A stretch of 64,000 nucleotides of DNA, taken from the NCBI GenBank assembly GCA_016220095.1, contig JACRIJ010000111.1, positions 27,748 to 91,747 of the forward strand. Reading direction: 5' to 3'. The DNA comes from Planctomycetota bacterium. Lineage in GTDB: Bacteria > Planctomycetota > MHYJ01 > JACQXL01 > JACRIJ01. Under the pieces are notes generated by a model. It searched no databases, had not been told where the DNA came from, and worked only from the letters and a program-made list of their open reading frames with translations. Each line of letters begins with the position of its first letter. Position 1 is the first letter of the stretch. Made by a program: the position numbers and the translations under genes. Below are positions 13,532 to 31,244 of this stretch, piece after piece.

Positions 13532-14512
13532 ATGAAATCCGTTCTTTCGGAGTATTTTATGCAAGACGCAATTTTTACGGAATTCTATAAAGCAGTTCTT
13601 AACAGCCTTTACGACGGAGTATATTTTATAGACAACACCAGAAAAATCACTTACTGGAATAAGGGCGCGGAAAGGATTACCGGATATAACCCTACTGAAA
13701 TTATAGGCACTTCATGCGCGAATAACATACTAAAGCAGATAGATAAATCCGGTATCATGGTTTGTTCAAGAAGTCTCGACAAAAATGATTCCGGATTCTG
13801 CACGGGCCAATGCCCTATCGTCAAATCCATCCAAAACAGGGAACATACCGAAAGAGAATTGTTTTTCCACCATAAGAACGGCCATAAAGTGCCGGTTCTT
13901 CTGAGAACCGCCCCGATCACGGATGCCGCCGGAAATATAATGGGCGCAACGCAGATTTTCAGCGATACTTCGGAAAAAATTTCCGCCATCCAGAGGGCGG
14001 AAGAACTGCAGAAACTGGCATATATTGACCCGCTCACCGGCGCCGGCAACAGGCGTTATACGGAAATTATCCTTCACGAAAAACTGGAGGAATTTCACAG
14101 GTACGGAATGCCATTCGGCGTGCTGTTTATTGATATAGACCACTTTAAACAGATAAACGACAGTTACGGCCACCTGGTCGGAGATGAAATGCTGAAGATG
14201 ACGACAAAAACCATGCTGAGTAATATACGCACATTTGATTTTATCGGCAGATGGGGCGGCGAGGAATTCGTGGCAATTATCCTGAATTCCAATGAAGAAA
14301 TGCTCTATTCCATAGCCAACAGGTTCAGGATGCTGACTGAAAGAACCTGCCTTACCGTTGAAAAGAAAAGTGTAAATATAACAATTTCCGTGGGCGCAAC
14401 GATTGCTAAACAGGGAGATACGATAGAATCCCTCATTCAATGGGCCGATGCGCTCATGTACCAGAGCAAGGCGCTGGGACGTAATTGCGTCACCCTGAGG
14501 AATAAACCGTGA
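13532..14512 (+). CDS. PAS domain diguanylate cyclase (GGDEF)
   Basis: 326 aa; PAS (YWNKGAERITGY), GGDEF active site RWGGEEF, I-site-like RxxD. Confidence 0.85.
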   Translation: MKSVLSEYFMQDAIFTEFYKAVLNSLYDGVYFIDNTRKITYWNKGAERITGYNPTEIIGTSCANNILKQIDKSGIMVCSRSLDKNDSGFCTGQCPIVKSIQNREHTERELFFHHKNGHKVPVLLRTAPITDAAGNIMGATQIFSDTSEKISAIQRAEELQKLAYIDPLTGAGNRRYTEIILHEKLEEFHRYGMPFGVLFIDIDHFKQINDSYGHLVGDEMLKMTTKTMLSNIRTFDFIGRWGGEEFVAIILNSNEEMLYSIANRFRMLTERTCLTVEKKSVNITISVGATIAKQGDTIESLIQWADALMYQSKALGRNCVTLRNKP

Positions 14513-14555: not shown

Positions 14556-14593
14556 GACGTCCTTCCTCTTCATTTTTCATACTTCATTCTTAG
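14556..14593 (+). repeat. repeat family A copy A2
   Basis: gacgtccttcctcttcatttttcatacttcattcttag, between convergent genes. Confidence 0.65.
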
Positions 14594-15207
14594 ACTCCGC
14601 ACACCAGCAGGAAGAATCCGGCCTTTTGCCACGCCTTCATCATAATATCGTATCCGATGGTTTTTCTGCCGTCATGCCATTCAATAACAGCACATCTGTA
14701 TTTTTCGCTGTAACCCGAAATGACAAAAAAGTGGAAAACGTCCTCACCTGCTATTGCGGGCATTTTATCCGCGGCGAGCGTATTTATTTCCAGCATGACT
14801 ATAACGGGCCGGCCGGCGTTAATATGGGCATTCAATGATTCAATCGCGCCCGCCTCCTGGCGCGCGTCAAATCCCGCCCTGCGCGCGGATAAAAGCAATT
14901 CTATGGACGGCGTACCCTTGCCTGATTTCCGGATAAATCCGTTTCTGATTTCTCCGGGAGAAGACGGTTTGCCAAGGAATGAATACATTGCCGAAAGCGC
15001 CTCCGCGGCGCAATCTCCTGACGTGTCCGATTGCGGCAGTGTTACGCCGTTAATTATATGGAAATCCGGGCCGGCGTTTTCGGGTAACGCCGCCAAATCC
15101 AATTGCAGAGAAGAACATCCAATAACGCTCAATACGAAAATGAAAAATGGAAAATGAAAAATGAATGTATTTACCCGGAATTTGTAAAGGATTTTTTTCC
15201 TGTGCAT
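14590..15207 (-). CDS. lipoprotein with peptidase C39-like (papain-fold cysteine peptidase) domain
   Basis: 205 aa; lipobox VIGC; motif SGDCAAEALSAMYSFLG typical of C39_2-like domains. The N-terminal hydrophobic core FIFHFPFFIFV is encoded by an A-like repeat (copy A3). Confidence 0.45.
   Translation of the reverse strand: MHRKKILYKFRVNTFIFHFPFFIFVLSVIGCSSLQLDLAALPENAGPDFHIINGVTLPQSDTSGDCAAEALSAMYSFLGKPSSPGEIRNGFIRKSGKGTPSIELLLSARRAGFDARQEAGAIESLNAHINAGRPVIVMLEINTLAADKMPAIAGEDVFHFFVISGYSEKYRCAVIEWHDGRKTIGYDIMMKAWQKAGFFLLVCGV
15134..15166 (-). repeat. A-like repeat copy A3 inside the coding 5' end of the C39-like gene
   Basis: cgaaaatgaaaaatggaaaatgaaaaatgaatg is the reverse complement of a CATTTTTCATTTTCC duplication; it is translated as the signal-peptide h-region. 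Confidence 0.5.
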
Positions 15208-15244: not shown

Positions 15245-15637
15245 TTATGGCCAATCGTAACCTTCCACGATATTAAGGAATATGTATATCAAGAGCGCGA
15301 TGACTACCAGCGTATATCCCGTAGGATCCGTAGTGCCGCCTATCTGGAGCTGGTTGATGTTCTGTGAAATTACGGCTATATCCTCATCAGAAAGCTGTGA
15401 CATTACCTGTTCAATCTGCGCATCGGTGTAACCGAGTCCGGATAATTTCCCCTTTAACGCGTTTAAATTCGCGGCCATATCCGCATTTGCAACCGTATCT
15501 GATGCCGCGGGTTGCGGAATCTGCACGGGATTCTGTTGCGGCTGGTCCGCAAAAATTTGCATGGGATTAATCAGGCACGTACAGAAAACCGCGGTGATAA
15601 CAATGGTATTTTTGATGAAAAACCAGACCATTTTCAT
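15245..15637 (-). CDS. small secreted protein with N-terminal signal peptide and C-terminal TM anchor (130 aa)
   Basis: Signal peptide, Q/P-rich linker, C-terminal hydrophobic segment LVVIALLIYIFLNIV; flanked by repeats A3 and B1. Confidence 0.45.
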   Translation of the reverse strand: MKMVWFFIKNTIVITAVFCTCLINPMQIFADQPQQNPVQIPQPAASDTVANADMAANLNALKGKLSGLGYTDAQIEQVMSQLSDEDIAVISQNINQLQIGGTTDPTGYTLVVIALLIYIFLNIVEGYDWP

Positions 15638-15708: not shown

Positions 15709-15750
15709 GCAGTAGCGAGTAGTGAGTAAGGAGTAGCGAGGGACGACGAT
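15709..15750 (-). repeat. dispersed repeat family B copy B1 (CGTCGTCCCTCGCTACTCACTACTCGCTACTG, reverse orientation)
   Basis: gcagtagcgagtagtgagtaaggagtagcgagggacgacgat. Confidence 0.7.
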
Positions 15751-16483: not shown

Positions 16484-16685
16484 TCCTACATCATTTAACA
16501 GCCGCGTAATTAACAGGGACTGACGACGACTCTTGCCGACAGGGACTCTGAGAGACCTTGATGAGACACGAACGAAATGGAAAATCGAGAATGGAGCACC
16601 AAAAATCCCGCAATGCGGGATTTTTGGTGAGTGTGAGTATTGAGTACTTAGTAGTTAGGCGCCAATTTTGCGCAAGCGCAAAATT

Positions 16686-17040
16686 GGTGGAGGCGGGGGG
16701 AATTGAACCCCCGTCCCGAGACACTTCAGCAGGAGCTTCTACGCTTGTAGCCGGTAATTTGCTCTCGCGCCCGGGCCCCCTTCCGGCAAGGTGCCAGTCC
16801 GCCAGCTTAACTTTGAGTTTCGCCCCTCAGGCGTTTAGCAAACCCTCAGGGCTATCCCGCAGTGATACGTCGCCATGCTCCCGCGGGAGGGGAACACGAC
16901 AACGTTACAGCTTAATTACGCTGCAAATGCATACGCATTGTCTGCGTTTATATTTTTGCCAGGTGTTTTACGGGGCCTCCTGACAACCCCGAAGCGCCGC
17001 TTTCTGCCTCAATCTGTCCGGTCGAATCCAGTTCGCCCCC
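16686..17040 (-). ncRNA. ssrA: tmRNA (ssrA), one-piece form
   Basis: Minus-strand 5' end GGGGGCGAACTGGATTCGAC and 3' end GGACGGGGGTTCAATTCCCCCCGCCTCCACCA. Acceptor stem has a G3:U70 wobble (AlaRS identity element). Tag ORF GCA GAC AAT GCG TAT GCA TTT GCA GCG TAA reads ADNAYAFAA*. Adjacent to smpB. Confidence 0.9.
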
Positions 17041-17187: not shown

Positions 17188-17232
17188 ATCCGTCGTCCCT
17201 CTGTACTCGCTACCGGCTACTCGCTACTTCGT
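17188..17232 (+). repeat. repeat family B copy B2 abutting the smpB stop
   Basis: atccgtcgtccctctgtactcgctaccggctactcgctacttcg. Confidence 0.65.
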
Positions 17233-17693
17233 TAAATGTTCTTCCCTCTCATCGCCATTCTGATATGTTTATCAGATTCTTTCTTTTTCATATCCGCGCG
17301 CTTGTCGTAGAGTTTTTTGCCTCTCGCGACGGCAAATTCAATTTTCGCAAGGCCTTTTTTGAAATACAGCGCTAAAGGCACGAGTGTCTTGCCTTCCTCG
17401 GCGGTTTTGCCAAGCAGGCGGTGTATCTCGCTCTTGTGCAGGAGCACCTTGCGCGGCCTCTTGGGTTCGTGATTGGCAAAATTGCTCGCCTGCGCATACA
17501 AAGCAATCTCCATATTGTAAATAAACACCTCTCCATTGCTTACCCTGAGATAACCTTCGGTTATGCTGGCATTGCCGTCGCGGATGGATTTCACTTCGGT
17601 TCCGCGCAAGGACAGGCCGCCTTCGTATTTTTCAAGGATTTCGTAATTGGCAAAGGCCTTTTTGTTTTTAACAACGATTTTTATGGCATCCAT
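17232..17693 (-). CDS. smpB: SsrA-binding protein SmpB
   Basis: 153 aa; conserved SmpB sequence (KKAFANYEI...GTEVKSIR...). Immediately upstream of tmRNA on the same strand. Confidence 0.9.
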   Translation of the reverse strand: MDAIKIVVKNKKAFANYEILEKYEGGLSLRGTEVKSIRDGNASITEGYLRVSNGEVFIYNMEIALYAQASNFANHEPKRPRKVLLHKSEIHRLLGKTAEEGKTLVPLALYFKKGLAKIEFAVARGKKLYDKRADMKKKESDKHIRMAMRGKNI

Positions 17694-17810: not shown

Positions 17811-17892
17811 GTACGTCCGTGACCCGTTTTCCGTGGCCCGTAACCCGTTTACACGGGAACCGGGAAACGGGCAACGGGAACCGGACAATGTC
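17811..17892. repeat. repeat family C copy C1 (GC-rich hairpin element built of CCCGTTTCCC/GGGAAACGGG motifs)
   Basis: gtgacccgttttccgtggcccgtaacccgtttacacgggaaccgggaaacgggcaacgggaaccgg; internal inverted repeats. Confidence 0.7.
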
Positions 17893-17925
17893 CTTCATTC
17901 TTCATTTTTCATACTTCATGCTTCG
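17890..17925 (+). repeat. repeat family A copy A4, fused to C1, ending at the stop codon of the truncated lipoprotein paralog
   Basis: gtccttcattcttcatttttcatacttcatgcttcg. Confidence 0.7.
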
Positions 17926-17928
17926 TAA

Positions 17929-18446
17929 TCAACGCCGGACGTCGAGTTTTTGGCCGGGGCCGCTGTCAGAAGCCGAGCGTATTATATATTGCTCCTGCGA
18001 ATTGGGGTCAAAACCTTCCTTAAAATCTGAAAACATGATAGTGTAATTGCCGTTTGCATCCGTTTTAATCGGGCCTGCCACGGGGTCCGAAAAATCGGTA
18101 TCATCAACGGTATAAACATACAAATCCGATTCAGGCACGTTGACAATCTTAAAATTATCAATTTTCTCAAACGATTTATCGTCAGGCGCGGACTGTGGTT
18201 TTGTCAGGCCGGAACTCGTATAAAATACATTGCCGCTGACGAAAGCCATATCATCGCTGTCACTGGTTTCTGCTGGTTTCGGGGCCGGGGATGATTCCGG
18301 GGCCGAAGACGAAGCCTGAGAAGAGTTGCTTTCTCTTATTGCTGTTGAAGAAGCGCCGCCTCCTCCGCCGCAGGCGGGAAGAACAGCCAATCCTGTAAGC
18401 ACTGCGGCAACTAAAACAAGGCGTGCTATTAAATTATTTTGAAACA
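17929..18446 (-). CDS. truncated paralog (5' remnant, about 172 aa) of the giant lipoprotein family: signal/lipobox plus carboxypeptidase-regulatory-like domain only
   Basis: MFQNNLIARL...LPACGGGGG lipobox; AFVSGNVFYTSSGLTKPQ...DLYVYTVDDTDFSDPVAGPIKTDANGNYTI is collinear with residues about 1-160 of the two giant genes (about 75% nt identity). GGAGG RBS 9 nt before the ATG at 18446. The ORF stops exactly at the junction with repeats A4/C1. Confidence 0.6.
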
Positions 18447-18497
18447 TGCTGAAAAAACCTCCATGATAAATGTAATTTAACAACCGCAAAGCGCGAT

Positions 18498-21400
18498 TTA
18501 TTTGGCTATAAATACGCCAAACACATCGCCGCCTATGAATTCACCGCCTGTTGACATGTCTATTGTCATTCCAGTATTAAGTATCACAAAGAACTTGCCA
18601 CCGGCATAGCCGCCCATGGTGCCAAGTTGCATGCCGGCATCCGTATTAACAGAAACTTCCGTGCCAACAAGCGTCCCGGACATGCTTACATATTGACCGT
18701 ATACATTCCAATCCGCAGTGGTGCTGAAACCGTCTACGGTCAAATCCGTCCAGACAACAAAGAAATCAGTTCCATCAGAGGCGGCTGTAGGCAGGAATTG
18801 CTCGCCAGGATCAGCGTTAATCACTATGCCGGATCCGACCAAAGAACCGTTTTTATCAACTATCTGGCCATAGACGTCCCATTCGCCTGAATTCAAGCCG
18901 CCAACCTCGTCTGTCCAGATAACAAGATATTTTGCATTGGTTGAATCATAACAAACGGAAACCTCGTTATCGCTGAGATACGTATTTGCATTAATGGATA
19001 TTTCCGCGCCAAGCGTGCCTGTCGGCGAAACAAAACGGCCTTTTATTTCATAGTCATTGGTATCGTCGCACCATACTACAAAGAAATCAGTCCCGTCAAA
19101 GGCAACGCACTTGAAACCGAAATCAGCGTAACCTGTGCTGATGGCAAATTCACTGCCTACAATGCCCGCAGTGCTGACAAGTTTTCCGTAAGCCTTGCTT
19201 TCACCGGTAGAAGAATTAACCTCTTTGAAATACACGACAAGGTAATTGCCGCCGCCGTAAGCGACATCACCCAATTCATCCGTGTTGGAGCTTATCGCCG
19301 CAATATCTATAGTCGCACCACTGAGTCCGGTGCCGTCTTTTTTAATGAACTGCCCTTTAATCGTATCAACCGGATATGTGGCATCATCCGCCCACACCAT
19401 AAGGTAATAGGCGCCGTCATACGCTACGGTAGGAACGCCGCCTGCGCCGGCTGTGAATATTCTTGTGCCGGTTAAAGCGCCGGTTGCCGATACCAATTGC
19501 GCGTTTGCGGCATTGTTGTTTGCGTCATTGCCTTCTATGGCAACAAGATAATTAGTGCCGTCAAACGCGGCACTGACAGCCATTTCCTGTGCTGACATGG
19601 TTGCGATAGCCGTTCCAGCTGGCGCCGGGCCTGGCCCCGGCCCCGGGCCTGTAACGGGGCCTGTTGAGAACGGGTCCGGCGGCATAAATGCCCATCCGCT
19701 CGTCATGCCTGTCGTAGTCAATACCCATGCAAATTCAAAATCCATGCCCACGCCGTCTTCGGTATGGAATACCCTCAACAGGTACGCCCTTTCGGTATCT
19801 GCCGGATCGGTCAGGGCATCACCGGTTCGTATAAGGTATATGGACGGCTTATCGTAGCCGCCGGTTGCCGTGAATATATCTCCTGTTATGACAGTTGTTA
19901 TTGTCATTAAAGTCCCCTTGCTCGCGTAGAAATCAATCGTAAATCCGGCGTCATAGGACGCGTAGATGTTATCGTTCTTGAAAGTTTTTTTGGCGTCCAC
20001 GGGCAGTGCCGCGTCAAGGGCTAATATATCAAGCTTGTATATTTTAAGGTTCGTGTTGCTGCCGTTCGGAACGAACACCAGTTTATTAAGCGAATTGGAC
20101 GTAACCAGCGCATCCCAACCGGAGAATTCAGCCGTCCCGGCAAATTCCGTATTTTCAATATCGTATCCGAAATTGAAATAAGTGTTGTTATCCAGCCACA
20201 CGTACGGGAAGAACATCGGTTTCCATTCGCCTACAAAGAACGGCCATTGAGGATTGGCAGGGTCAAATACCGCGCCCGGATCATATCCCCAGTGCAATAC
20301 AAAATCAATCTTGCCGTTTCCGTTGGTATCTTCCCTCTGGCCGTCGCCATTGGTATCCGTATCCTCACCGTCATGGTTCATCCACGAAGTAAACGGGTCC
20401 GCCCAGAAATACCATACGAAAGTATCGGCCGTTCCGTTACTGTCATAATCATAAGCAAACTTTACAAAATAACCCTTCCACAGCCCGTCAGGGTTGTTCA
20501 CGCTGTCAAATGTCAATGTCAACATGCCGTTGGCATCGGTTGTAACACTGCTGATAAAATTGGCGGAATCTGATGTAGAATTATGCGTTGATGCCCATGC
20601 GTCCTGACCGTTATCATAATACAGTTCCATTGATTCAGAAGCCAACGGACCTGAATCGGCTTTGAAATGCTGGGTAAGGGTCAATTGCCAGTTTGAAGGC
20701 AGTTGTTCAAATTGCTGGTTGTTTTCCGGATTCCACCAGGAATCAAACTGCAGGCTTGACAGGATAGTTTCAAGGTTTTCATTGAATGTCAGGTTTTCAT
20801 AATCGCCTGCATAGGCGCTGAACCCGTCCATAAGGCCGCTGAATATGGACTTTAACACCTGTTCGCTTGCTATGGGAGAAATTTCTTTCAGGTTTTCCCA
20901 ATATTCGCGGATTTCCTGTTTATTGTCCGGATTTTGATACATCCATCCGCCGCCGAAACTATTGGCGGCTGAAGGATCTATGACCCTCTGGCCGACAATG
21001 CGCATCACAAAAATAACGAATGCCGACCTGAAATCCAGAACCGTACTGTCGGCAAATGTCTGCCCGTAGAGTTGAGGCGACACGCCCGCGTAAATAACGC
21101 TCTTGTACCTTTCTTCCATGGAGGTCCACATCGGAGTGGAATAAATGAGTTCGCCGGCCTTGTTAAAAAAACCATCGCCGTCAATAACCGTGCCGTCCTG
21201 GCTCATATACGGACTGAAAACCGCTTCATAATATGCGTTTGTATCGGCATAGAGCCCGTCCAGTACGGCCTTATTCGCGAGAAATTCCAATGCGAAATCG
21301 GCAATATTGATGTAATTTGATATTTGTTCAAGAGACATTTCAACGAATTCGCCGCTTGTTGACGGAAGGGTTATATCAAACATCTCTGCTATTTCAGCGT

Positions 21401-22778
21401 CTGTGATAGCCGCGGAATCGAAAATATCCGTATTCGTACCCGAATCCCAGCTCCAATTCCACCGCCATTCAAATTCGGCTTTTGTAAGGACTTTCAAATC
21501 TGACAGGGTGCAGGAAAGCGTATTGTAATTATCAGCGATATATTCCACCAGCGCATACGAAAAAGTATCCATATGTTCCATAATGTCTCTGAGCCGGAAC
21601 TTCCTGTCCTTATTGAATGTATAGGTCGTAAAATCCCTGCCGAACATATCTTTATCCTGGAGTTTTACGCCGGATTCATCAACGAAACCGTCGCTATTGG
21701 CGTCCGCAAAAACATCCTTAATGTTGATGAGATATACGTTCGGATTAAAGGAAAGCTGTTTTGCCGTATCCGTAGTTATCGGCTCGGGATTGCTGATCCC
21801 GGGAAAATTTTCCGCCGTGAGTTCCATCAATGTTCCGTCCGCTTTCCTGAAAAAATCAGGCTCAATGTACGTATAACATTCTTCATTGCTGTTTTCTCTG
21901 GCAACAGTAAAACCAAGCATTGTAATGATATTAATAAGAGCAACGAGTTTCTTTTCAGCCGCAACGCCCTCTTTGAATATTTCGTCTGCCGCGGCGCCGT
22001 CAAGCATGGTGGATGCGGTAGAAATTTCCACCGATCCCGCGGCTCCGGATTTGGTCGTATCAAAAGACGATGTGTAATCGTCATAGAAATAGGATTCATC
22101 CACGGTCAGGTCGCCGGTTGCAAGCTGTGCGGTAACTTCTTTGACTATTGAGGAAACGATTTCCACAAGACTCGCCCACAGCGCCGGATTGATATCAACC
22201 AGGCCGAATTCGTTGAAGATCTCCTGTATCTTGGTAAGAATGGTCTGTACGACGATTTCAGTGACCGGGTCAACGCCTACGACAGGCGCGCCATTCGCGT
22301 CTTTATCAAGGGCGGCATCGTTCATATCAAGCAGGCGTCTGAGGCCAAGCTTCTGCCCGTTGCCCCTCGTAAAGGCCGCGCGGATTACGTATTGCTGTTG
22401 CGAATTTGGGTCAAAACCGGCCTTGAAATCGGAAAGTTTAATGGTATAACTGCCGTTTGCATCCGTCTTAATCGGACCTGCTACGGGGTCTGAAAAATCG
22501 GAATCGTCAATAGTATACACATAGACATCCGCGTCAGGTACGTTGACGAGGTCGGAATTATTGATTTTCAGGAGCGTCTTGCCGTCAGGTGTGGTTTGCG
22601 GTTTGGTCAGGCCGGAACTCGGATAAGAAACGTTGCCGCTGACGAATGCCGTGTCACTGCCGCCGGGGGGGTTAGTCGTACTGCCGCCGCCTCCTCCGCC
22701 ACAGGCAGGCAACAGAGACAATCCTGCAATTATAATTGCAAACAAGACACCCCGCGTTATTGAATTAATTTGAAACAT
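18498..22778 (-). CDS. giant surface lipoprotein paralog 1 (about 1426 aa): lipobox, Gly-rich linker, CarboxypepD_reg-like domain, large novel central region with DxDxNGDG calcium-binding-like motif, PG linker, 7 tandem approx 50-aa beta-propeller-like repeats
   Basis: Start refined to ATG 22778 (MFQINS; GGAGG RBS; the track start 22793 is an in-frame upstream ATG within the RBS). LLPACGGGGGG; DTDTNGDGQREDTNGNGKIDF; GPVTGPGPGPGPAPAG. C-terminal repeats follow the pattern [AF]DGxx[YF][LF]VVWxD...VYGQxV...G...G. Confidence 0.75.
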   Translation of the reverse strand: MFQINSITRGVLFAIIIAGLSLLPACGGGGGGSTTNPPGGSDTAFVSGNVSYPSSGLTKPQTTPDGKTLLKINNSDLVNVPDADVYVYTIDDSDFSDPVAGPIKTDANGSYTIKLSDFKAGFDPNSQQQYVIRAAFTRGNGQKLGLRRLLDMNDAALDKDANGAPVVGVDPVTEIVVQTILTKIQEIFNEFGLVDINPALWASLVEIVSSIVKEVTAQLATGDLTVDESYFYDDYTSSFDTTKSGAAGSVEISTASTMLDGAAADEIFKEGVAAEKKLVALINIITMLGFTVARENSNEECYTYIEPDFFRKADGTLMELTAENFPGISNPEPITTDTAKQLSFNPNVYLINIKDVFADANSDGFVDESGVKLQDKDMFGRDFTTYTFNKDRKFRLRDIMEHMDTFSYALVEYIADNYNTLSCTLSDLKVLTKAEFEWRWNWSWDSGTNTDIFDSAAITDAEIAEMFDITLPSTSGEFVEMSLEQISNYINIADFALEFLANKAVLDGLYADTNAYYEAVFSPYMSQDGTVIDGDGFFNKAGELIYSTPMWTSMEERYKSVIYAGVSPQLYGQTFADSTVLDFRSAFVIFVMRIVGQRVIDPSAANSFGGGWMYQNPDNKQEIREYWENLKEISPIASEQVLKSIFSGLMDGFSAYAGDYENLTFNENLETILSSLQFDSWWNPENNQQFEQLPSNWQLTLTQHFKADSGPLASESMELYYDNGQDAWASTHNSTSDSANFISSVTTDANGMLTLTFDSVNNPDGLWKGYFVKFAYDYDSNGTADTFVWYFWADPFTSWMNHDGEDTDTNGDGQREDTNGNGKIDFVLHWGYDPGAVFDPANPQWPFFVGEWKPMFFPYVWLDNNTYFNFGYDIENTEFAGTAEFSGWDALVTSNSLNKLVFVPNGSNTNLKIYKLDILALDAALPVDAKKTFKNDNIYASYDAGFTIDFYASKGTLMTITTVITGDIFTATGGYDKPSIYLIRTGDALTDPADTERAYLLRVFHTEDGVGMDFEFAWVLTTTGMTSGWAFMPPDPFSTGPVTGPGPGPGPAPAGTAIATMSAQEMAVSAAFDGTNYLVAIEGNDANNNAANAQLVSATGALTGTRIFTAGAGGVPTVAYDGAYYLMVWADDATYPVDTIKGQFIKKDGTGLSGATIDIAAISSNTDELGDVAYGGGNYLVVYFKEVNSSTGESKAYGKLVSTAGIVGSEFAISTGYADFGFKCVAFDGTDFFVVWCDDTNDYEIKGRFVSPTGTLGAEISINANTYLSDNEVSVCYDSTNAKYLVIWTDEVGGLNSGEWDVYGQIVDKNGSLVGSGIVINADPGEQFLPTAASDGTDFFVVWTDLTVDGFSTTADWNVYGQYVSMSGTLVGTEVSVNTDAGMQLGTMGGYAGGKFFVILNTGMTIDMSTGGEFIGGDVFGVFIAK

Positions 22779-22890
22779 ACCAGAAACCTCCATAAGTATA
22801 TTTTTTCTGAATTTGCATTATACCCAAAAAAACAGAATATGTCAAATTTTTCGCACGAATTAAGAGGTGTATTTGTTATTCCTTTCCTCA

Positions 22891-22977
22891 TTCGTCGTCC
22901 CTATATGTTCGCTACTACGCCACTCTTCCTTCTTCGTTTTCCCTTCTTCCTCCTTCGTAAAAAAAGAGGAGGCCTGC
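22891..22977 (+). repeat. repeat family B copy B3 plus C/T-rich extension, in the intergenic region between the giant paralogs
   Basis: ttcgtcgtccctatatgttcgctactacgcc...; followed by a gaggaggc/gcctcctc hairpin at 22966-23000. Confidence 0.6.
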
Positions 22978-23030
22978 ATTACGCAAGCCTCCTCGTAAAT
23001 TTTCAAAATCACAGTCGCATCGCCGTTCGT

Positions 23031-23068
23031 CGTCCCTAACTGCTCACTGCTATCTACTCGGCCCTCGC
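23031..23068 (+). repeat. repeat family B copy B4 abutting the stop of giant paralog 2
   Basis: cgttcgtcgtccctaactgctcactgctatctactcgg. Confidence 0.6.
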
Positions 23069-26000
23069 CTATGGCGCCGTAAAGTAAATCAGCCTGGACA
23101 GCTGTGTGCCGTAAATCGTCCTGTAGTATATGCCCACCCTGTATTTTTGTCCGGACACCAGGGTGGCTCCGGTCGGATTGACGGACATCGCCGTATACGG
23201 GTCAAGGTCATAAGCGCCCCATAGCGTATTGCCCTGGAAAACCCAGGACGAATCCAGCTGGTCAAACATAACGTACACTGTTTCAAACATCAAATTCGGA
23301 TTGTTGACGTTTTGAGGCGTGCCCGGCAGGATAATGCTGGGGTTCCAGGAAATCTGCGTCAGGTTATTTGACATGTCAACCTGCAGATTGGTTCCGGTAT
23401 TTGTCGGGCTTGTTCCGTCATGTATGGGGAACGCGGGCACTTCGTTTATCTTTACGGTTTTCTCCACTATTGTGTTATCCGTCAGTGTGAATTTCACCTT
23501 AAAATTGGCTCCTAACACAGGAGGCGTGGTGCCTTTATCAACAAAAATTCCCCACGGCTGGCCCGCCGTGCCGGCGTTCAGGGTTGCTACCAGATTGTTC
23601 GCAAGATTAAACACTTCAACCTTGCTGACCGTAGACGGGTCATAGGCCTCGCCGGAGAAGAACAATCCGTATGTCTGGCTGATGGTGCTTCCGCCGTTAT
23701 TGTTTGACGCGAACATTACGGTTTCAACCTTACCGGAATAAAACATTGTAGAAGGCGCCGTCTGGGTCGCGAGTTTGCCGTCGTTATTCACGTCATAAGC
23801 GGCCAATTCCAAGGTCGTTGCCAAAAATCCCTTCCATTCAATGCTTCTGACTTCGCCGATGCCGGGGGCATACCACGTTTCCATCGTATCTGTCTGTAAA
23901 TTTGCGTCCGTTATTGACAACGTAATATGCAGACAACCGGCAAAATGCCCTGCCGGAACGTCAACGTCTTCAGTGCCGTAAACCGTTACCTCAAAGGATA
24001 ATGTCTCCGCGTCATTTTGCAGAAGCGTTGTGCCTGAATTGTCGTAAATATCCATATTCGTAGTTCCTGAGACCGTATCAAACACATTAGACGACGCAGG
24101 CAATAGCGTAATCGGCGTATCAAATATCTGAAGTCCGCCGCCATCGGCAAATCCGTATAGCATGAGGGCGCCCGTGGCGGAATCATAACCGTAATAGTCA
24201 CTGAACTCATAATTGGCGGAATCGGCATTGCCTGTATATTTTTCGGTCGTGTAACCGATGCCGTTAGGCAGGGTTACGGCGGAATTCAATACCTTTTCCG
24301 TTCTGAATTCTTCGGATACTACCTTGTTCTTCAAATCGCCGAAGAAATAGAATTCGCCGTATTCGCGGTCAATATATGTCCGCGTGCCGGAGAACGTACT
24401 GCCGGACGGGTAATACGTTGAAGCAAGGTATCCGCCCGAAGGAGGAGGAACATAGCCGCCCGGGCCGCCGGTGCCGCCGCCCGCGGGTTCAAACGGATTC
24501 GGCGGTATATTGGTCCAGTTATTTGTCTCCGTGCCGTTTACTGCCGTAAATATAGTCGCGAATTCAAAATCAAATCCCATATCATCCGCCTTGAATACGC
24601 GGAGCAGGTACGCCCTTTCGGTATTGAACATGGGCGAATCGCCAGTGCGTATCAGATATATGGACGGGGACATATATTCGCCGGTGTTGGAGAACGTATC
24701 GCCTTCTATGGCCAGATTGGAAGCGTCAGTTCCTTTGCTTGCGTAGAAATCAATGGTAAATCCGGCGTCAAACGCAGCGTATATGTTGTTTCCGGTAAAC
24801 GTCTGTTTCGGATTTGTACCAAGCGCGGCATCCAAATCGGCGGCATTAAGCTTATAAACCGTCACGCCGTTCGTATTATTGGGCACCATAACCAGTTTAT
24901 TCTGAGAATTTGCCATCACAAGAATATCATAGTTGTTATTATACTGGGTCACGTCCGTATTCATGAACGGGGTACCTTCAATATCGTAACCGAAATTGAC
25001 GTAGTTATTCACCGGCACCCAGGCATACGGGAACATCATAGGCTTCCATTCGCCCACATAGAACGGCCACTGCGGATTGGCCGGGTCAAACGGCTTATCC
25101 TTGTCAAATCCCCAATGGCTGATGTAATCAATATAACCGTTGCCGTCAACGTCATCCCTGACGCCGTCGCCGTTGTTGTCATAATCTTCGCCGTCGTGAT
25201 TCACCCAGTCATTGTACATGTCGGCCCAGAAGTACCATACGAACGTTTCATCCGTTCCGTTCGCGCCGACATCAAAGGTAAACTTCACAAAGTATCCCTT
25301 GAAGAAATCAAGAAGCGGGCCTTTCGCATTGTCAAATTCAAGCGTAAGCATGCCGTTTTCGTCTGTGGTAACCGATGAAATGAAATTCGCCACATCGCTG
25401 GTGGAATTATGCGTGCTCGCCCACGCGTCCTGCCCCATGTCATAATAGAGTTCCATGCTGTAAGACGCAAGCGGTCCGACGTCTGATTTAAAGTTCTGGG
25501 TTAAGGTGAGCTTTGTATTGTCAGGCAGTTGTTCAAAATTATTATGCTCCATGTCCTTATTCCACCAAGTATCAAACTGCATGCTTTCCAACAGCGTCTG
25601 CGTATTCGTATCAAACGCAAGGTTTTCATAATCGCCGGTATATGAGGCGCCGAATATGTCAGGGAATAGCTGAACCAGTATTTCCTTGATAACGGTCGTA
25701 TCGTCTGTCGGAGACGGCCACATGAAGTTCTGATTGTTGGGCTCAATGTTTTTATCGGGCATATCAGTTCTCTGATACAATAACCCGCCCGCAAAACCGT
25801 CTAACGGGTCAATCACGTGTATTCCGGTAAGACGCAGAACTATCAGCACAAACGCGGACCTGAAATCAAGCGCCGTATCGTCGGTAAATGTCTGCCCGTA
25901 TAACTGCTGTGAAATGCCGGAGTAAACCGTGCCTTTTATTTTTTCCTCTTCAGAATTCCACATCGGCGTGGTCTTGACTATCTCTTTGGCCTTTTCAAAG

Positions 26001-27652
26001 AACCCGTCGCCGTCAACAATGGTTCCATTGGAATCAAAGAACTGTTTGAAATTGTCCTGGAAGAAGGCATCTTTATTCGCATACAGTCCGTCCAATACGG
26101 CTTTATTGGCCGCGTATTCTATGGCAAAACCGGTAAATTCAAAATAACGGGAATCCTGGCTTAGAATTTCTTCTACATAATCCACCGCAGTAGGCGGAAG
26201 GGTTATGGCGAAAAGTTCGTCCACGTCTCCGGCCGCGAACGGAATTGTCGGGCCGTCCACCCACATGTTCTGAGCCTCGTCAAAATATCCGTCCTGGCGC
26301 CACTGGAAACTGCCTGCAATGGTCTGCTTTACGGTGGCAATATCAGTGCTGAGAAAGATATAATTAGCGGCCGTAAACGCTATCATTTCGTACATCAGGG
26401 CGCCCATGTCTTTAAAGTTTTCGCGAAGCCGGAATTTCTTGTCGGCGTTAAACGTGTATGCGGTAACGTCCCTGCCGAAGAAATCCTTTCCCTGCACTTT
26501 AACTCCGGAGTCGTCAACAAATCCATCCTGGTTCGTATCCGTAAAAATATCATTCGGGGCCAGGACGTATATATTGGGATTGAACGGAAGCTGTTTGTCA
26601 ACGTCCGTTGTTATGGGTTCAGGTATGCTCATGCCCGGGAAATTCTCCGCGGTCACTTCCATCAGGGTGCCGTCCGGTTTCCTGAAAAAATCCGGTTCAA
26701 CGTACGCGTAGCATTTTTCGTTGCTGTTTTCCAGCGTCACCGTAAAACCGAGCATGCAGAGAACGTTAATGAGGGAAACGATTTTCTTTTCGTCAGGAAC
26801 GCCCTCTTTGAATATCTCGTCAGCCGCGGCGCCGTCAAGGAGCATGGACGCCGTGGATACCTCAACGGTATCAGACGCGCCGGACTTGGTCGTATCCATG
26901 GAACTGGTATAATCATCGTAGAAATAGCTTTCATCCACGGTCAGATCGCTGTTTTCAAGCTGTGCCGTCAATTCCTGCACAATAGAAGTAACGATATTCA
27001 CGAGACTCTGCCACAACGCGGGATCTATGCTTACAATGCCGAATTCGTTGAAGATTTCCTGGATTTTAGTAAGAATCGTCTGAACGACTATCTCGGTAAT
27101 CGGGTCAACACTTATTACCGGATTGCCGTCGGCGTCCTTCGTAATTGATGCGTCGTTCAGGTCCATGAAACACCTTAACCCTATCTTCTGGCCGCCTGCA
27201 TTGTTAAATGACGCGCGGAGAACGTATGATGTCTGCGAAGCAGAGTCAAAACCCGCGATAAAATCGGATTCGTCTACCGTGTAATTGCCGTTCGCGTCGG
27301 TTGTAATCGGACCTGCGACCGGATTAGAGAAATCCGTATCGTCAATGGTGTACAAATATACCTCGGCGCCGGCTACCGCAACAAGGTCTGAATTATTGAT
27401 CTTGAGCAGATTCTTGCCGCCTGCCGGATTCTGGGGCTTGGTTAAACCGGTGCTGGGATATGAGACGTTGCCTGAAACAAAGGCAACATCCGTACCGCCG
27501 CCGGTAGTGCCGCCACCCGTGGTGCCGCCGCCGGTCGTGCCGCCGTCAGTTGAACTGCCGCCACCACCGCCGCCACAGCCGAATAACAGCGCTATGCTCG
27601 TAAGCACCGTTATGAAGACAAGTAATCTTACATTGGATTTTTGGTAAAACAT
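23069..27652 (-). CDS. giant surface lipoprotein paralog 2 (about 1527 aa): same N-terminal approx 1000-aa module as paralog 1 but a different C-terminal approx 500-aa head
   Basis: Start refined to ATG 27652 (MFYQKSN; AAGGAG RBS; the track start is an upstream TTG). LLFGCGGGGGGSS followed by (GGTT)x3 from a 12-nt tandem repeat. Collinear with paralog 1 through ...ERAYLLRVF..., then unrelated sequence after the G/P linker (AGGGTGGPGGYVPPPSGGY). Confidence 0.75.
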   Translation of the reverse strand: MFYQKSNVRLLVFITVLTSIALLFGCGGGGGGSSTDGGTTGGGTTGGGTTGGGTDVAFVSGNVSYPSTGLTKPQNPAGGKNLLKINNSDLVAVAGAEVYLYTIDDTDFSNPVAGPITTDANGNYTVDESDFIAGFDSASQTSYVLRASFNNAGGQKIGLRCFMDLNDASITKDADGNPVISVDPITEIVVQTILTKIQEIFNEFGIVSIDPALWQSLVNIVTSIVQELTAQLENSDLTVDESYFYDDYTSSMDTTKSGASDTVEVSTASMLLDGAAADEIFKEGVPDEKKIVSLINVLCMLGFTVTLENSNEKCYAYVEPDFFRKPDGTLMEVTAENFPGMSIPEPITTDVDKQLPFNPNIYVLAPNDIFTDTNQDGFVDDSGVKVQGKDFFGRDVTAYTFNADKKFRLRENFKDMGALMYEMIAFTAANYIFLSTDIATVKQTIAGSFQWRQDGYFDEAQNMWVDGPTIPFAAGDVDELFAITLPPTAVDYVEEILSQDSRYFEFTGFAIEYAANKAVLDGLYANKDAFFQDNFKQFFDSNGTIVDGDGFFEKAKEIVKTTPMWNSEEEKIKGTVYSGISQQLYGQTFTDDTALDFRSAFVLIVLRLTGIHVIDPLDGFAGGLLYQRTDMPDKNIEPNNQNFMWPSPTDDTTVIKEILVQLFPDIFGASYTGDYENLAFDTNTQTLLESMQFDTWWNKDMEHNNFEQLPDNTKLTLTQNFKSDVGPLASYSMELYYDMGQDAWASTHNSTSDVANFISSVTTDENGMLTLEFDNAKGPLLDFFKGYFVKFTFDVGANGTDETFVWYFWADMYNDWVNHDGEDYDNNGDGVRDDVDGNGYIDYISHWGFDKDKPFDPANPQWPFYVGEWKPMMFPYAWVPVNNYVNFGYDIEGTPFMNTDVTQYNNNYDILVMANSQNKLVMVPNNTNGVTVYKLNAADLDAALGTNPKQTFTGNNIYAAFDAGFTIDFYASKGTDASNLAIEGDTFSNTGEYMSPSIYLIRTGDSPMFNTERAYLLRVFKADDMGFDFEFATIFTAVNGTETNNWTNIPPNPFEPAGGGTGGPGGYVPPPSGGYLASTYYPSGSTFSGTRTYIDREYGEFYFFGDLKNKVVSEEFRTEKVLNSAVTLPNGIGYTTEKYTGNADSANYEFSDYYGYDSATGALMLYGFADGGGLQIFDTPITLLPASSNVFDTVSGTTNMDIYDNSGTTLLQNDAETLSFEVTVYGTEDVDVPAGHFAGCLHITLSITDANLQTDTMETWYAPGIGEVRSIEWKGFLATTLELAAYDVNNDGKLATQTAPSTMFYSGKVETVMFASNNNGGSTISQTYGLFFSGEAYDPSTVSKVEVFNLANNLVATLNAGTAGQPWGIFVDKGTTPPVLGANFKVKFTLTDNTIVEKTVKINEVPAFPIHDGTSPTNTGTNLQVDMSNNLTQISWNPSIILPGTPQNVNNPNLMFETVYVMFDQLDSSWVFQGNTLWGAYDLDPYTAMSVNPTGATLVSGQKYRVGIYYRTIYGTQLSRLIYFTAP

Positions 27653-27762
27653 AAACAAACTCCTTATTTGAATTGACTGTTTTATTTTTTGTTATATGCC
27701 TAATTATACCCTGAAAAACGCTAAAAGTCAAATGAAACGGAAAAAAATTGGACTTCGGACGG

Positions 27763-27803: not shown

Positions 27804-27830
27804 TATTCATTTTTCATTCTTCTTCCTTGA
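27804..27830 (+). repeat. repeat family A copy A5 (overlaps the 3' end of the GGDEF gene)
   Basis: tattcatttttcattcttcttccttg. Confidence 0.6.
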
Positions 27831-28775
27831 TACGGCGGCGGCTATTTGGTTCTTGCCCTTCTTCTTGGCGCGGTACATAGCCTTATCCGCGGCATCAAAG
27901 AGCTCCTGCGCATTTCCGGCATCGTCCGAATACGTTGCCACGCCTATGGAAGCCGTTATTACTACATGCAATTCGTGGTCTTCCTTGAGAAACCTTTTAT
28001 GGTCAATCTCTTCTCTTATGCGGTCCGCCACCACTATGGCCATTTCCTTGGGCGAATCCGGCAGAAGTATGGCAAATTCGTCCCCGCCGTAACGGGCAAC
28101 GATATCCTGGTCCCGCAAGTTGTTTTTTATCGTAAATGCCACCTGCCTCAGTATAACGTCCCCAAACAGGTGTCCGAAATTGTCGTTGTAGTTCTTGAAA
28201 TTATCAACGTCCAGCATGAGAATAGACAGTTTTTTGCCGTCCCTGCCGGCCTGCGCGACCATTTCCTTCAATTTGTCCTGAAAAAACCTGTGGTTATACA
28301 CGCCCGTAAGGCTGTCTATATTGACGAATACGGTTATGCGGTCCATGGCGTCTTCGCTCAAAAGCCGTACGTTCTGGATAAGTTTCAGATGATTGCTCAG
28401 GTAGTCCAGCGCCGCTACGCGTACGCCGACGTTGCGCCCGAGTTTTTCGCTCAGGAAATATTTATGCTTGATTATCCCGCGCCAGATCTCCCTGGCCTTG
28501 ACCGTATCAAAACGCTGATAAGTAATGGTAAACAGCAGATCCGAAAAAAAATCCTCGCCGCCGGCGAGATTCTGGAGTTTTTTCTCAAAATCCTCCGCTG
28601 ATAAACCTTCGGCCTGCGCGTCGCCCGCAAGAATATCTATGATATTGATGCCGTTGTCTTCGTGTTCCTGGATCATTTTAACAATGTCAAGGTCCTCGGC
28701 AACGGCAAGGTCCGGCTGGAAAACGCTTGGCCCCGAAGGCCGGGGATCTCTTTTTTCTAAAAATTCTTTTGACAT
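27807..28775 (-). CDS. diguanylate cyclase (GGDEF) with uncharacterised N-terminal domain
   Basis: 322 aa; RYGGDEFAILL active site; LTGVYNHRFF. Confidence 0.8.
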   Translation of the reverse strand: MSKEFLEKRDPRPSGPSVFQPDLAVAEDLDIVKMIQEHEDNGINIIDILAGDAQAEGLSAEDFEKKLQNLAGGEDFFSDLLFTITYQRFDTVKAREIWRGIIKHKYFLSEKLGRNVGVRVAALDYLSNHLKLIQNVRLLSEDAMDRITVFVNIDSLTGVYNHRFFQDKLKEMVAQAGRDGKKLSILMLDVDNFKNYNDNFGHLFGDVILRQVAFTIKNNLRDQDIVARYGGDEFAILLPDSPKEMAIVVADRIREEIDHKRFLKEDHELHVVITASIGVATYSDDAGNAQELFDAADKAMYRAKKKGKNQIAAAVSRKKNEK

Positions 28776-28827
28776 ATTTGTATAAGAATATTCTTTTACT
28801 TAAAAAAAGTCAACAGGAAATTCATAC

Positions 28828-28849
28828 GAAGGATGAAGAAGGAAGGACG
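28828..28849 (-). repeat. repeat family A copy A6 (short, reverse)
   Basis: gaaggatgaagaaggaaggacg; adjacent to C2. Confidence 0.5.
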
Positions 28850-28945
28850 TTTTCCGGTTCCCGTTGCCCATTTCCCGGTTCCCGTTTAAACGGGCCATGT
28901 ACCGGTACTGATGCATGGCGGGCCACGGGAAACGGATCACGGCTC
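28846..28945. repeat. repeat family C copy C2 (reverse complement of C1 with a 26-bp palindromic insertion)
   Basis: ggacgttttccggttcccgttgcccatttcccggttcccgtttaaacggg...ggccacgggaaacggatcacgg; insertion ccatgtaccggtactgatgcatggcg. Confidence 0.7.
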
Positions 28946-29948: not shown

Positions 29949-31244
29949 ATGTGCATAAAAAAAATACGTAACGGTTTGATTCTAACCGTGTCTGTCGGTC
30001 TGCTCGCTTTTCTGGCTTCAAGCATCTTTTCGGATGAATCCGACCAGCCGAAATATATCGGCAGTGACGATTGCGAGATGTGCCATGATACCATGAAGAC
30101 GGATATCGCCAAAGGCGTGCATGCGTTTATATTTGACAGCAAGGATACGCCGGAAATATACGGGTGCGAGGCCTGCCACGGCCCCGGCGAAAAACACGTG
30201 CAAGGCCAGGGTGAAGACAACGCAGACCTTAAAAAAATAATGATCAATCCCGCCAAGGCAACCGCGGACGTCAGTTCCGCCCAGTGCATGAAATGCCATA
30301 AGGATTTTTTTGACGAACAGGATTGGCTTAACGGCAGGCATATTAAGAATAATATCGGGTGCCCGAAATGCCATAAGATACATGCCTATGACCCCAAAAA
30401 GGACCCCATCAAGGAAGGATATAAGTTCTGCCTCAAAGAATGCCATGACGCGCAGGAAAAGGAATTCGCTAATTCCAAGGCGAAATTCGGGCATAAGATT
30501 CCCAAGGTCGCGAACTGCCTGAGCTGCCACTCCCCGCATTCCAGAATCAACCTGAATACCTCGCGGGAGGCCTGCGTAAAATGCCACGCGGATAAAAAAG
30601 GCCCGTTCAAGTTCAATCACGGCAACGGCCGCATACAGGAATGCACGGTATGCCATTATCCGCACGTCATGGACGAACCTAAAATGCTGAAAAGGAAGGT
30701 GTCGCTTGACCTGATGTACGAAGAGCCGAAGATGGACGACAAAAAGAAAAAGGACCAGGAAAAAAAGGACAAAGATAAACATAAAGAAGGCGAACTTTCC
30801 GAAAGGGACGTAATTACATTCTGCCTGCAATGCCATACACAACACAAGACGGACAATTGCCTCGGATGCCACCAACAGCCCCTGCACGTAGAGCCTCCGA
30901 AACAGGGCATGTGCCAGAGATGCCACGCGGGACACGGTTTTGCAGGATGCCCGACCTGCCACGGCAACCCGCATCCGAACGGCGTTACGCCGCGGGATTG
31001 CAGTAAATGCCACCAGCCGCATACCACGAAAAGCTGTCTGGATTGCCATCCTTTCATGCACGGGTCAAACGATTCAAGGCGATTCTTTGAGCCGACAGTA
31101 TCAATAAAAATTCCGGGCGACGACCTGACGCCGAAACCGCAGTTAGTCAGCAAGAGAAAACAACCGACAGGCGGCACCGGAGGCGCAGGAAGCGGTTCCG
31201 ATAGCAACAAGCCAGAAGGGCCGGGAACGTCAAGCGGCAAATGA
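29949..31244 (+). CDS. 14-heme c-type cytochrome (13 CxxCH plus one CxxxCH), paralogous to the upstream decaheme over the N-terminal approx 200 aa
   Basis: 431 aa; signal peptide; shared CEMCH...CEACHGPG..HVQGQGEDN block; CLKECH variant site; K/D-rich linker (KKKKDQEKKDKDKHKEG) before a C-terminal 6-heme module; G/S-rich tail. Confidence 0.85.
   Translation: MCIKKIRNGLILTVSVGLLAFLASSIFSDESDQPKYIGSDDCEMCHDTMKTDIAKGVHAFIFDSKDTPEIYGCEACHGPGEKHVQGQGEDNADLKKIMINPAKATADVSSAQCMKCHKDFFDEQDWLNGRHIKNNIGCPKCHKIHAYDPKKDPIKEGYKFCLKECHDAQEKEFANSKAKFGHKIPKVANCLSCHSPHSRINLNTSREACVKCHADKKGPFKFNHGNGRIQECTVCHYPHVMDEPKMLKRKVSLDLMYEEPKMDDKKKKDQEKKDKDKHKEGELSERDVITFCLQCHTQHKTDNCLGCHQQPLHVEPPKQGMCQRCHAGHGFAGCPTCHGNPHPNGVTPRDCSKCHQPHTTKSCLDCHPFMHGSNDSRRFFEPTVSIKIPGDDLTPKPQLVSKRKQPTGGTGGAGSGSDSNKPEGPGTSSGK

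Follow-up and report, generated by a model that had tools for sequence, protein, structure and literature searches.

Three co-directional genes, paralogues A and B and short copy C, are encoded on the minus strand immediately 5' of smpB and the transfer-messenger RNA (tmRNA) gene ssrA in a 64-kb window (the whole stretch of DNA analysed) of a contig from a Planctomycetota bacterium metagenome-assembled genome (MAG). They belong to a rare, undescribed family of giant proteins that begin with a lipobox-like site, are modular in construction and number at least five in the host genome. On balance, the evidence favours a family of giant cell-envelope lipoproteins that expanded in the host MAG and in which the C-terminal barrel domain (head) was probably replaced once, in B. 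All positions are window coordinates (Table 1). The predicted lengths of the three products matched the public gene calls, C being a 172-amino-acid (aa) entry.

The two full-length proteins were 58% identical over ~1060 aa, confirming the collinearity over about 1000 aa that had been claimed in an earlier interpretation of this DNA made from its letters (the sequence-only reading). Identity per 50-residue block was 62-82% within residues 50-400, 34-50% at ~400-500 and 600-700, and 46-74% up to ~1050, beyond which it dropped to noise. In A, a signal peptide with an LFGC site at Cys26 is followed by a Gly/Thr-rich tether, the shared body, a Gly/Pro linker and the head; in B, a signal peptide with LPAC at Cys26 precedes the body, a PGPGPGPAP linker and a different head. 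The body begins with a transthyretin/CnaB-like beta-sandwich and a helical segment, continues with an alpha/beta core and closes with a beta-rich distal part that contains EF-hand-like loops. Two adjacent loops of the EF-hand/dockerin type were present where a calcium-binding-like loop had been noticed before: DxDxNG loops at residues 823 and 834 in A, and the double loop DTDTNGDGQREDTNGNGKIDF at 20301-20363 in B. The composition of the body is acidic (Asp 9-10%, Arg 1.5-2%), and its Trp content of just 1.6-2.3% does not justify the earlier description of the central region as Trp-rich. Both bodies end in a conserved (I/M)PP(N/D)PF sequence (PPxDPF motif), after which come GGGTGGPGGYVPPPSGG in A and GPVTGPGPGPGPAPAG in B.

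The shared body matched no family in Pfam, NCBIfam or PHROG and had no sequence relative in the PDB, in keeping with the earlier statement that the central region falls into no recognisable family. No description of the family was found in a literature search. An AlphaFold2 model of the B body (predicted local distance difference test (pLDDT) 69, predicted template modelling score (pTM) 0.50) was confident for ~1-140 and 230-640 of the modelled piece. Only the transthyretin/CnaB-like sandwiches were recognised by fold searches, and the ~400-residue alpha/beta core had no PDB fold match, partly because the model is of moderate quality. The core contains Glu, Trp, Asn and Gly positions that are invariant across phyla; HExxH or another known catalytic motif was not found in the body.

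Immediately after the PPxDPF motif and the Gly/Pro linker, A and B diverged completely, as previously proposed, and profile-profile comparison (hhalign) of the two head types gave a relatedness probability of 0.15%. Neither of the findings that the sequence-only reading had named as speaking against it, a characterised family for the central region and homology between the heads, was obtained. The B head was modelled (AlphaFold2, 78-sequence alignment) as an all-beta domain of ~28 strands with a pLDDT of 94.9 and a pTM of 0.94. Its best Foldseek matches in the PDB were seven-bladed propellers (template modelling (TM) score 0.56-0.69, E ~1e-7, identity <=14%), and the model itself has the build of a seven-bladed propeller. 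More than 465 homologues, 35-50% identical over the full length of the head, occurred in Nitrospirota, Burkholderiales, Desulfuromonadales, Phycisphaerales and WOR-3, the closest being unnamed proteins of the first four taxa. These proteins also carry FN3, TSP3, dockerin or Ig-like domains or type IX secretion system (T9SS) sorting tails, and the N-termini of 88 among 114 complete homologues resembled signal peptides when hydrophobicity was roughly assessed. Pfam, which lacks a model for this module, matched B and its head to no family at E up to 1, named propeller families (WD40, Kelch, FG-GAP, NHL, YncE-like and others) included, and NCBIfam returned insignificant matches to B, all far under the cut-offs (best E 0.055).

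The head of A has a different affiliation. Residues 1214-1272 of A matched the Pfam family DUF3108_like (PF21347) with 21.5 bits (E = 2.4e-4; cut-off 27). The A head also matched the head of relative P0126 (E = 9e-16), which passes PF21347 at 29.4 bits, and through these alignments it is likely related to DUF3108_like. DUF3108 proteins are described as outer-membrane-associated beta-barrels of unknown function with a YmcC fold (PMC4364669). The A head was homologous to the C-terminal regions of P0004, P0126 and P0129, with P0130 linked through P0129. Altogether the A-type head was secure in six others (P0003, P0004/P0125, P0126, P0129 and P0130), and the tails of P0128 and P0131 matched it weakly with their signature motifs aligned (E = 0.0018). 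The ~230-aa beta-rich C-terminal extension of the A head was common to the orthologue P0003 only. The earlier remark that nothing in this module is recognisably described thus holds for the body, but not for the heads, since that of B is a widespread unnamed propeller module and that of A is probably related to DUF3108_like.

The distribution of the family was assessed by an exhaustive HMMER search of 1.84 billion representative proteins with a four-sequence profile. As a result, 26 matches to the shared body were identified, which fell into four groups: the window proteins; P0004 and P0125, ~26% identical over their whole length; six relatives (P0126-P0131) of full-length-like size (1434-1808 aa) and ~20% identity; and thirteen proteins of 1480-3339 aa that share profile positions ~1-255 and 355-640 only. 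The wider superfamily extends to Desulfobacterales and the cultured gammaproteobacterium Thalassocella blandensis. P0004 and P0128 bear HZA48 locus tags, which brings the copies in the host MAG to five or more: A, B, C, HZA48_00485 and HZA48_13105. P0131 stems from the sample that yielded the host MAG, and P0003 is an orthologue of A from another sample with 86% identity. Scanning of genome and metagenome contigs with the body alignment found nothing, and a further search with a 16-sequence profile, its candidate list limited by a word index, returned the same four proteins again. The host SmpB is at most 55% identical to any SmpB among 185,579 species genomes, indicating that a close relative of the host has not been sampled.

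A hydrophobic h-region and Cys26 followed by GGGGG were found in A, B and C, in line with the shared N-terminal sequence reported earlier for the three paralogues, and a signal peptide with the C-GGGGG start recurred in nearly all 26 family matches. The lipobox-like site reads LFGC in A and LPAC in B and C, the latter with a non-canonical Pro at -2 relative to the consensus [LVI][ASTVI][GAS]C; relatives carry the canonical LILGC, LAAGC or IAVGC at the same position. The N-terminal domain showed the seven-stranded prealbumin-like (transthyretin/CnaB-like) sandwich fold. No match to CarboxypepD_reg (PF13620) or a related Pfam profile was obtained for A, B or C, and relatives P0134 and P0135 gave weak or sub-threshold carboxypeptidase-regulatory-like matches only. 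Of the carboxypeptidase-regulatory-like sandwich postulated before, the fold therefore stands without the profile match. In A, a tandem 15-nucleotide (nt) repeat at 27492-27581 (residues ~25-54) encodes the (GGTTG)n tether right after the lipobox Cys, and the tether could accordingly vary in length by slippage.

A and B were ~70% identical in DNA with saturated synonymous divergence (dS), and C and B 78% identical, indicating that the duplications are old. Between A and its orthologue P0003 (dS ~0.8), the ratio of non-synonymous to synonymous substitution rates (omega) was 0.086 for the body and 0.115 for the head. These values indicate purifying selection on both parts, and diversifying selection on the head was not seen. 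The propeller occurred in B alone among all body-family members. With the A-type head secure in six other relatives, this argues for a single replacement and not for a cassette system. The simplest history suggested by these comparisons is that the DUF3108-like barrel is ancestral and that B underwent one domain replacement at the hinge. The GC content at third codon positions was 0.487 in the B head and 0.445 in C, compared with 0.588 +/- 0.032 in ten other window genes and 0.58-0.59 in A, and the lower value of the B head is a weak hint of foreign origin. The features noticed in the sequence-only reading were confirmed nearly throughout, but its interpretation only in part. There, the locus was given the logic of a constant anchor and stalk with exchangeable distal modules. 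The constant body and the non-homologous ends agree with this, but the exchangeability is contradicted by the one replacement, the head omega of 0.115 and the age of the paralogues.

C is a truncated third copy that comprises the 5' part. A GGAGG ribosome-binding site of its own precedes it; the product has a signal peptide with LPAC and a Ser/Pro-rich tether unique to it, and of the body just the first beta-sandwich. Its closest relative is B (71% aa identity over B residues 49-155), with an omega of 0.16 at dS ~1, and homology to B stops at the C stop codon, the 235 bp before smpB containing no further remnant. The description of two full-length genes and a 172-aa remnant is therefore accurate, with C a B-like 5' piece. 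C starts 51 nt after the stop codon of B with no terminator between them and is thus probably on the B transcript. As its ribosome-binding site, signal peptide and lipobox-like Cys are all intact, either C is still expressed as a small lipoprotein or its truncation was recent.

Two proteins, P0133 and P0147, were considered as independent stand-alone N-terminal lipoproteins and rejected, as they are the 5' parts of interrupted giant genes in loci L086/L087 and L088; they lend no support to C as a conserved short form. In L086 (~850-895) and L087, from two assemblies, an in-frame TAA stands in place of the conserved Gln codon of a DPxTExxxQ motif, and at L088 (10001-15603) a giant gene is split into open reading frames of 238 and 1615 aa. 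These interrupted genes may be pseudogenes, sequencing errors or cases of recoding.

On the minus strand of the region, the three sites most similar to a sigma-70 promoter lay upstream of B (12/12 matches), ssrA (12/12) and A (11/12), and the best terminator of the region (13-pair stem, T7) was located after A. With promoters of their own and this terminator, A and B are independent transcription units.

The gene neighbours of family members were not conserved overall, and none of 80 smpB loci from other genomes carried a family member, so the adjacency to smpB in the host is incidental. A recurrent neighbour was nevertheless found. A POTRA-Omp85 gene of 410-421 aa with a single POTRA match directly followed the giant gene in L003 (P0126), L089 (P0129) and L092, the last being syntenic with L089. 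Two Omp85 proteins of distant relatives were orthologous (36% identity, E = 3e-76), and a faint ShlB match was obtained for the Omp85/TpsB-like gene beside some relatives. After the Omp85 gene, mlaE, mlaF and mlaD were present in L089 and apparently in L092; three HtrA-like trypsin-PDZ genes were located upstream in L003. The pairing in two distant lineages hints at surface export.

Taken together, the proteins consist of a signal peptide with a lipobox-like Cys, a Gly-rich tether, a sandwich, helices, the family-defining alpha/beta core, an acidic Ca-loop region, a Gly/Pro hinge and a C-terminal module, which we propose was ancestrally a DUF3108-like beta-barrel. A and B would have arisen by tandem duplication, and the barrel of B would then have been replaced, at the hinge after PPxDPF, by a seven-bladed propeller that circulates in hundreds of secreted proteins of other phyla. 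The proteins may serve as lipid-anchored extracytoplasmic scaffolds that hold a ligand-binding module off the membrane, in which case A and B would differ in their binding partners. A dedicated single-POTRA Omp85 may, in some relatives, assist in inserting the protein into the outer membrane or moving it across. Several points weigh against this proposal. Position -2 of the lipobox is the non-canonical Pro in B, C, P0004 and P0128, and the A head itself stays under the DUF3108_like threshold in Pfam. Which head replaced which is judged by parsimony from few sequences. A tblastn search of the 64-kb window with both relatives' Omp85 proteins found nothing (best E = 3.7), other relatives also have no adjacent Omp85, and the link rests on two lineages. 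Finally, the conserved core could be catalytic and not a spacer, given its invariant residues across phyla and the lack of a fold match.

This last point leads to the explanation that retains a real, if minor, chance, namely that the alpha/beta core is an enzyme (e.g. a glycan or peptide hydrolase) and that the proteins are anchored extracytoplasmic enzymes whose heads target the substrate. The core (profile positions ~355-640) is the best conserved part and, besides the N-terminal sandwich and helical segment at positions ~1-255, the sole one common to the 1480-3339-aa proteins of Desulfobacterales and Thalassocella. It includes the invariant Glu, Trp, Asn and Gly positions, and carbohydrate binding is a frequent task of appended beta-propeller and barrel modules. 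However, the core has neither HExxH nor another known catalytic motif, it matches nothing in Pfam, NCBIfam or the PDB by sequence or fold, and the unconserved gene neighbours indicate no pathway. A bolder interpretation, which we regard as rather doubtful, is that the core represents a new fold with an activity or binding of its own and that the giant lipoproteins would form, together with the single-POTRA Omp85 encoded after the gene in two divergent lineages, an unrecognised export and display system for surface lipoproteins, with the C-terminal module (barrel, propeller, or the cytochrome c of P0139) as its exchangeable working end.

An active head-exchange system resembling variable adhesins or receptor-binding proteins, with C as a by-product of recombination, is improbable. 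It would account for truly non-homologous heads that part exactly at a conserved motif and a flexible linker, for tandem genes that include a truncated copy, for the widely different C-terminal regions within the superfamily (proteins of 1480-3339 aa), and for a dispersed inverted repeat pair that brackets the block. Nevertheless, only a single swap was seen, the DUF3108-like head being secure in six relatives and weak in P0128 and P0131, with the propeller in B alone. The paralogues are old (~70% nt identity, saturated dS), and comparison of orthologues shows purifying selection on the head (omega 0.115). There were no silent head cassettes, no site-specific recombinase among the neighbours scanned and no invertible promoter; the 5' ends are only 60-78% identical in DNA, and what the truncated copy comprises is the 5' and not the 3' part. 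The flanking repeats occur elsewhere in the window, and neither head had a match in 50,697 phage records (tblastn) or in PHROG.

A polymorphic-toxin-like locus (contact-dependent inhibition (CDI), Rhs or lipoprotein-toxin logic) is very hard to reconcile with the data: the PPxDPF motif immediately before the divergence, the tandem paralogues with a fragment downstream and the Omp85/TpsB-like gene with its faint ShlB match beside some relatives are reminiscent of such loci, but the domain content already largely refutes this reading: in place of toxin folds, the C-termini consist of a 370-aa propeller in B and a DUF3108-like barrel in A. In addition, neither head has a small immunity-like gene after it (C comes after B, and the terminator and the B promoter come after A), the fragment is N-terminal instead of being a cassette from the C-terminus, orthologues have conserved heads, and the window contains no TpsB or Omp85. 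Plain duplication, with C-termini that diverged beyond recognition and no replacement, would fit tandem paralogues of old divergence, but practically nothing is left of it, being refuted by the 35-50% identity of the B head to propellers in hundreds of unrelated proteins, its predicted seven-bladed fold, the homology of the A head to the DUF3108-like heads of other paralogues and the head-to-head relatedness of 0.15%.

Table 1 Positions of the features discussed (window coordinates, except for the Omp85 genes, which are given in their own loci)
Feature	Position	Strand	Remarks
Paralogue A (HZA48_11250)	23069..27652	-	1527 aa; open reading frame 23069-27658, ATG at 27652 after AAGGAG
Shared body of A	24485..27490	-	residues 55-1056
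A-type head	23069..24484	-	residues 1057-1527; linker, barrel ~1085-1300 (probable), beta-rich extension
Paralogue B (HZA48_11245)	18498..22778	-	1426 aa; open reading frame 18498-22793, ATG at 22778 after GGAGG
Shared body of B	19662..22655	-	residues 42-1039
B-type head	18498..19619	-	residues ~1054-1426; predicted seven-bladed beta-propeller
Short copy C	17929..18447	-	172 aa; open reading frame 17929-18489, ATG at 18447 after GGAGG
Promoter-like site upstream of A	27703..27731	-	TTGACT, 17 nt, TATAAT; 11/12 matches
Promoter-like site upstream of B	22817..22845	-	TTGACA, 17 nt, TATAAT; 12/12 matches
Intrinsic-terminator-like hairpin after A	22966..22994	-	13 pairs then T7; between the A and B units
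smpB	17232-17693	-	Pfam SmpB, E = 1.4e-54
tmRNA gene (ssrA)	16685-17040	-	same strand as A, B and C
Single-POTRA Omp85 gene, L003	11087-12352		directly after giant gene
Single-POTRA Omp85 gene, L089	4930-6162		directly after giant gene
Single-POTRA Omp85 gene, L092	3937-5202		directly after giant gene

The surroundings of the locus showed further features. GGDEF diguanylate cyclase genes are found on both sides of the region, one immediately upstream of A (27807-28775, minus strand) and one at 13532-14512 (plus strand). Just beyond ssrA, a small predicted lipoprotein with a peptidase C39-like domain is encoded beside an unannotated secreted protein (14590-15207 and 15245-15637, both minus strand), and a 1340-aa fusion of CheB methylesterase, CheR methyltransferase, histidine kinase and receiver is encoded at 3961-7983 (plus strand). 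A multihaem cytochrome gene is located at 29949-31244, 2.3 kb upstream of A. Elsewhere in the superfamily, the 3339-aa P0139 ends in a cytochrome c domain (residues 3258-3326), and a member at L088 adjoins an alternative-complex-III-like operon (L088 206-8545). These three observations may reflect a redox connection or coincidence.

Two kinds of dispersed intergenic repeats were identified. A GC-rich element of ~100-125 nt resembling repetitive extragenic palindromic (REP) sequences occurs at 17817-17913 and, inverted, at 28825-28942, with a partial copy at 43654-43678. The element has a palindrome within it (CCGGTTCCCGTTGCCCGTTTCCCGGTTCCCG ... CGGGCCACGGAAAACGGGTCACGG) and purine-rich GAAGNATGAAG words in front of it, and its core motif occurs 7 times versus 0.09 expected by chance. 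Over 70 nt, the two full copies show 89% complementarity; C, B, A and the GGDEF gene lie between them. The second motif, AGTAGCGAGGGACGACG, is present at 15732, 17191, 23028, 27764 and 37623 (5 occurrences versus 0.12 expected), with similarity extending over 33-45 nt; three copies directly follow a stop codon, namely those of smpB, A and the GGDEF gene. The 70-nt inverted repeats were considered as mobile-element ends or inversion sites and rejected, since related copies and the second motif exist elsewhere in the window, which identifies the flanking repeats as dispersed REP-like elements.

If the proposed scaffold role is correct, the locus provides a clean natural example of a giant envelope-anchored protein gaining a binding specificity by whole-domain replacement at a hinge. 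Two units are worth defining as families, the very rare ~1000-residue body, whose core matches no solved structure, and the common nameless propeller, and the recurrent pairing with a small Omp85 is a testable lead on the route to the outer membrane or surface in Planctomycetota and other phyla. No long-standing open question is touched by the finding, nor is a phenotype linked to it.

Among known systems, modular stalk-and-head surface proteins such as Gram-positive shaft pilins, MSCRAMM B-repeats and glycan-binding lipoproteins of Bacteroidota are also built on transthyretin/CnaB-type sandwiches. The body described here, however, consists mostly of the ~400-residue alpha/beta core and helices with no structural relative and not of a string of Ig-like repeats; it lacks LPXTG and isopeptide motifs, and its sequence belongs to none of those families. 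The heads of A, P0004, P0126 and P0129 match the profile region of DUF3108/DUF3108_like (PF11306/PF21347; YmcC-fold barrel, PDB 3FZX), with A at 21.5 bits against 27, but the barrel here would be the C-terminal module of a ~1500-aa protein and not a stand-alone protein of ~250 aa. The B head resembles YncE (3vgz), the CylK propeller (7roo) and hydrazine synthase beta (5c2v_B) at TM 0.56-0.69, although it is at most 14% identical to them and belongs to no Pfam propeller family. The substrate and transporter pairing of TpsA/TpsB-like gene pairs has a parallel in L003, L089 and L092; however, many tpsBA operons have the opposite gene order, the substrate here is a putative lipoprotein lacking the two-partner secretion (TPS) domain, and the relatives' Omp85 has a single POTRA match, with none encoded in the 64-kb window. 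Polymorphic toxins (CdiA, Rhs) likewise have a conserved motif at the point of C-terminal divergence and tandem copies with a fragment, whereas the present locus has no toxin domain, no immunity gene, a 5' fragment and heads conserved by purifying selection. Unlike bacterial alpha-2-macroglobulin-like lipoproteins, A and B show no A2M/MG Pfam matches and no CxEQ thioester; their few Cys lie in LRCFM, VLCML, EKCYA and AGCLH contexts, and Foldseek matches to ECAM had a probability of at most 0.13. Compared with the phase-variable Vlp/Vsa families of Mycoplasma, A and B have fixed promoters of their own, 5' ends that are 60-78% identical and no recombinase among the neighbours scanned. The family is new as a family but ordinary as a kind of system, with a single old replacement in an expanded set of paralogues.

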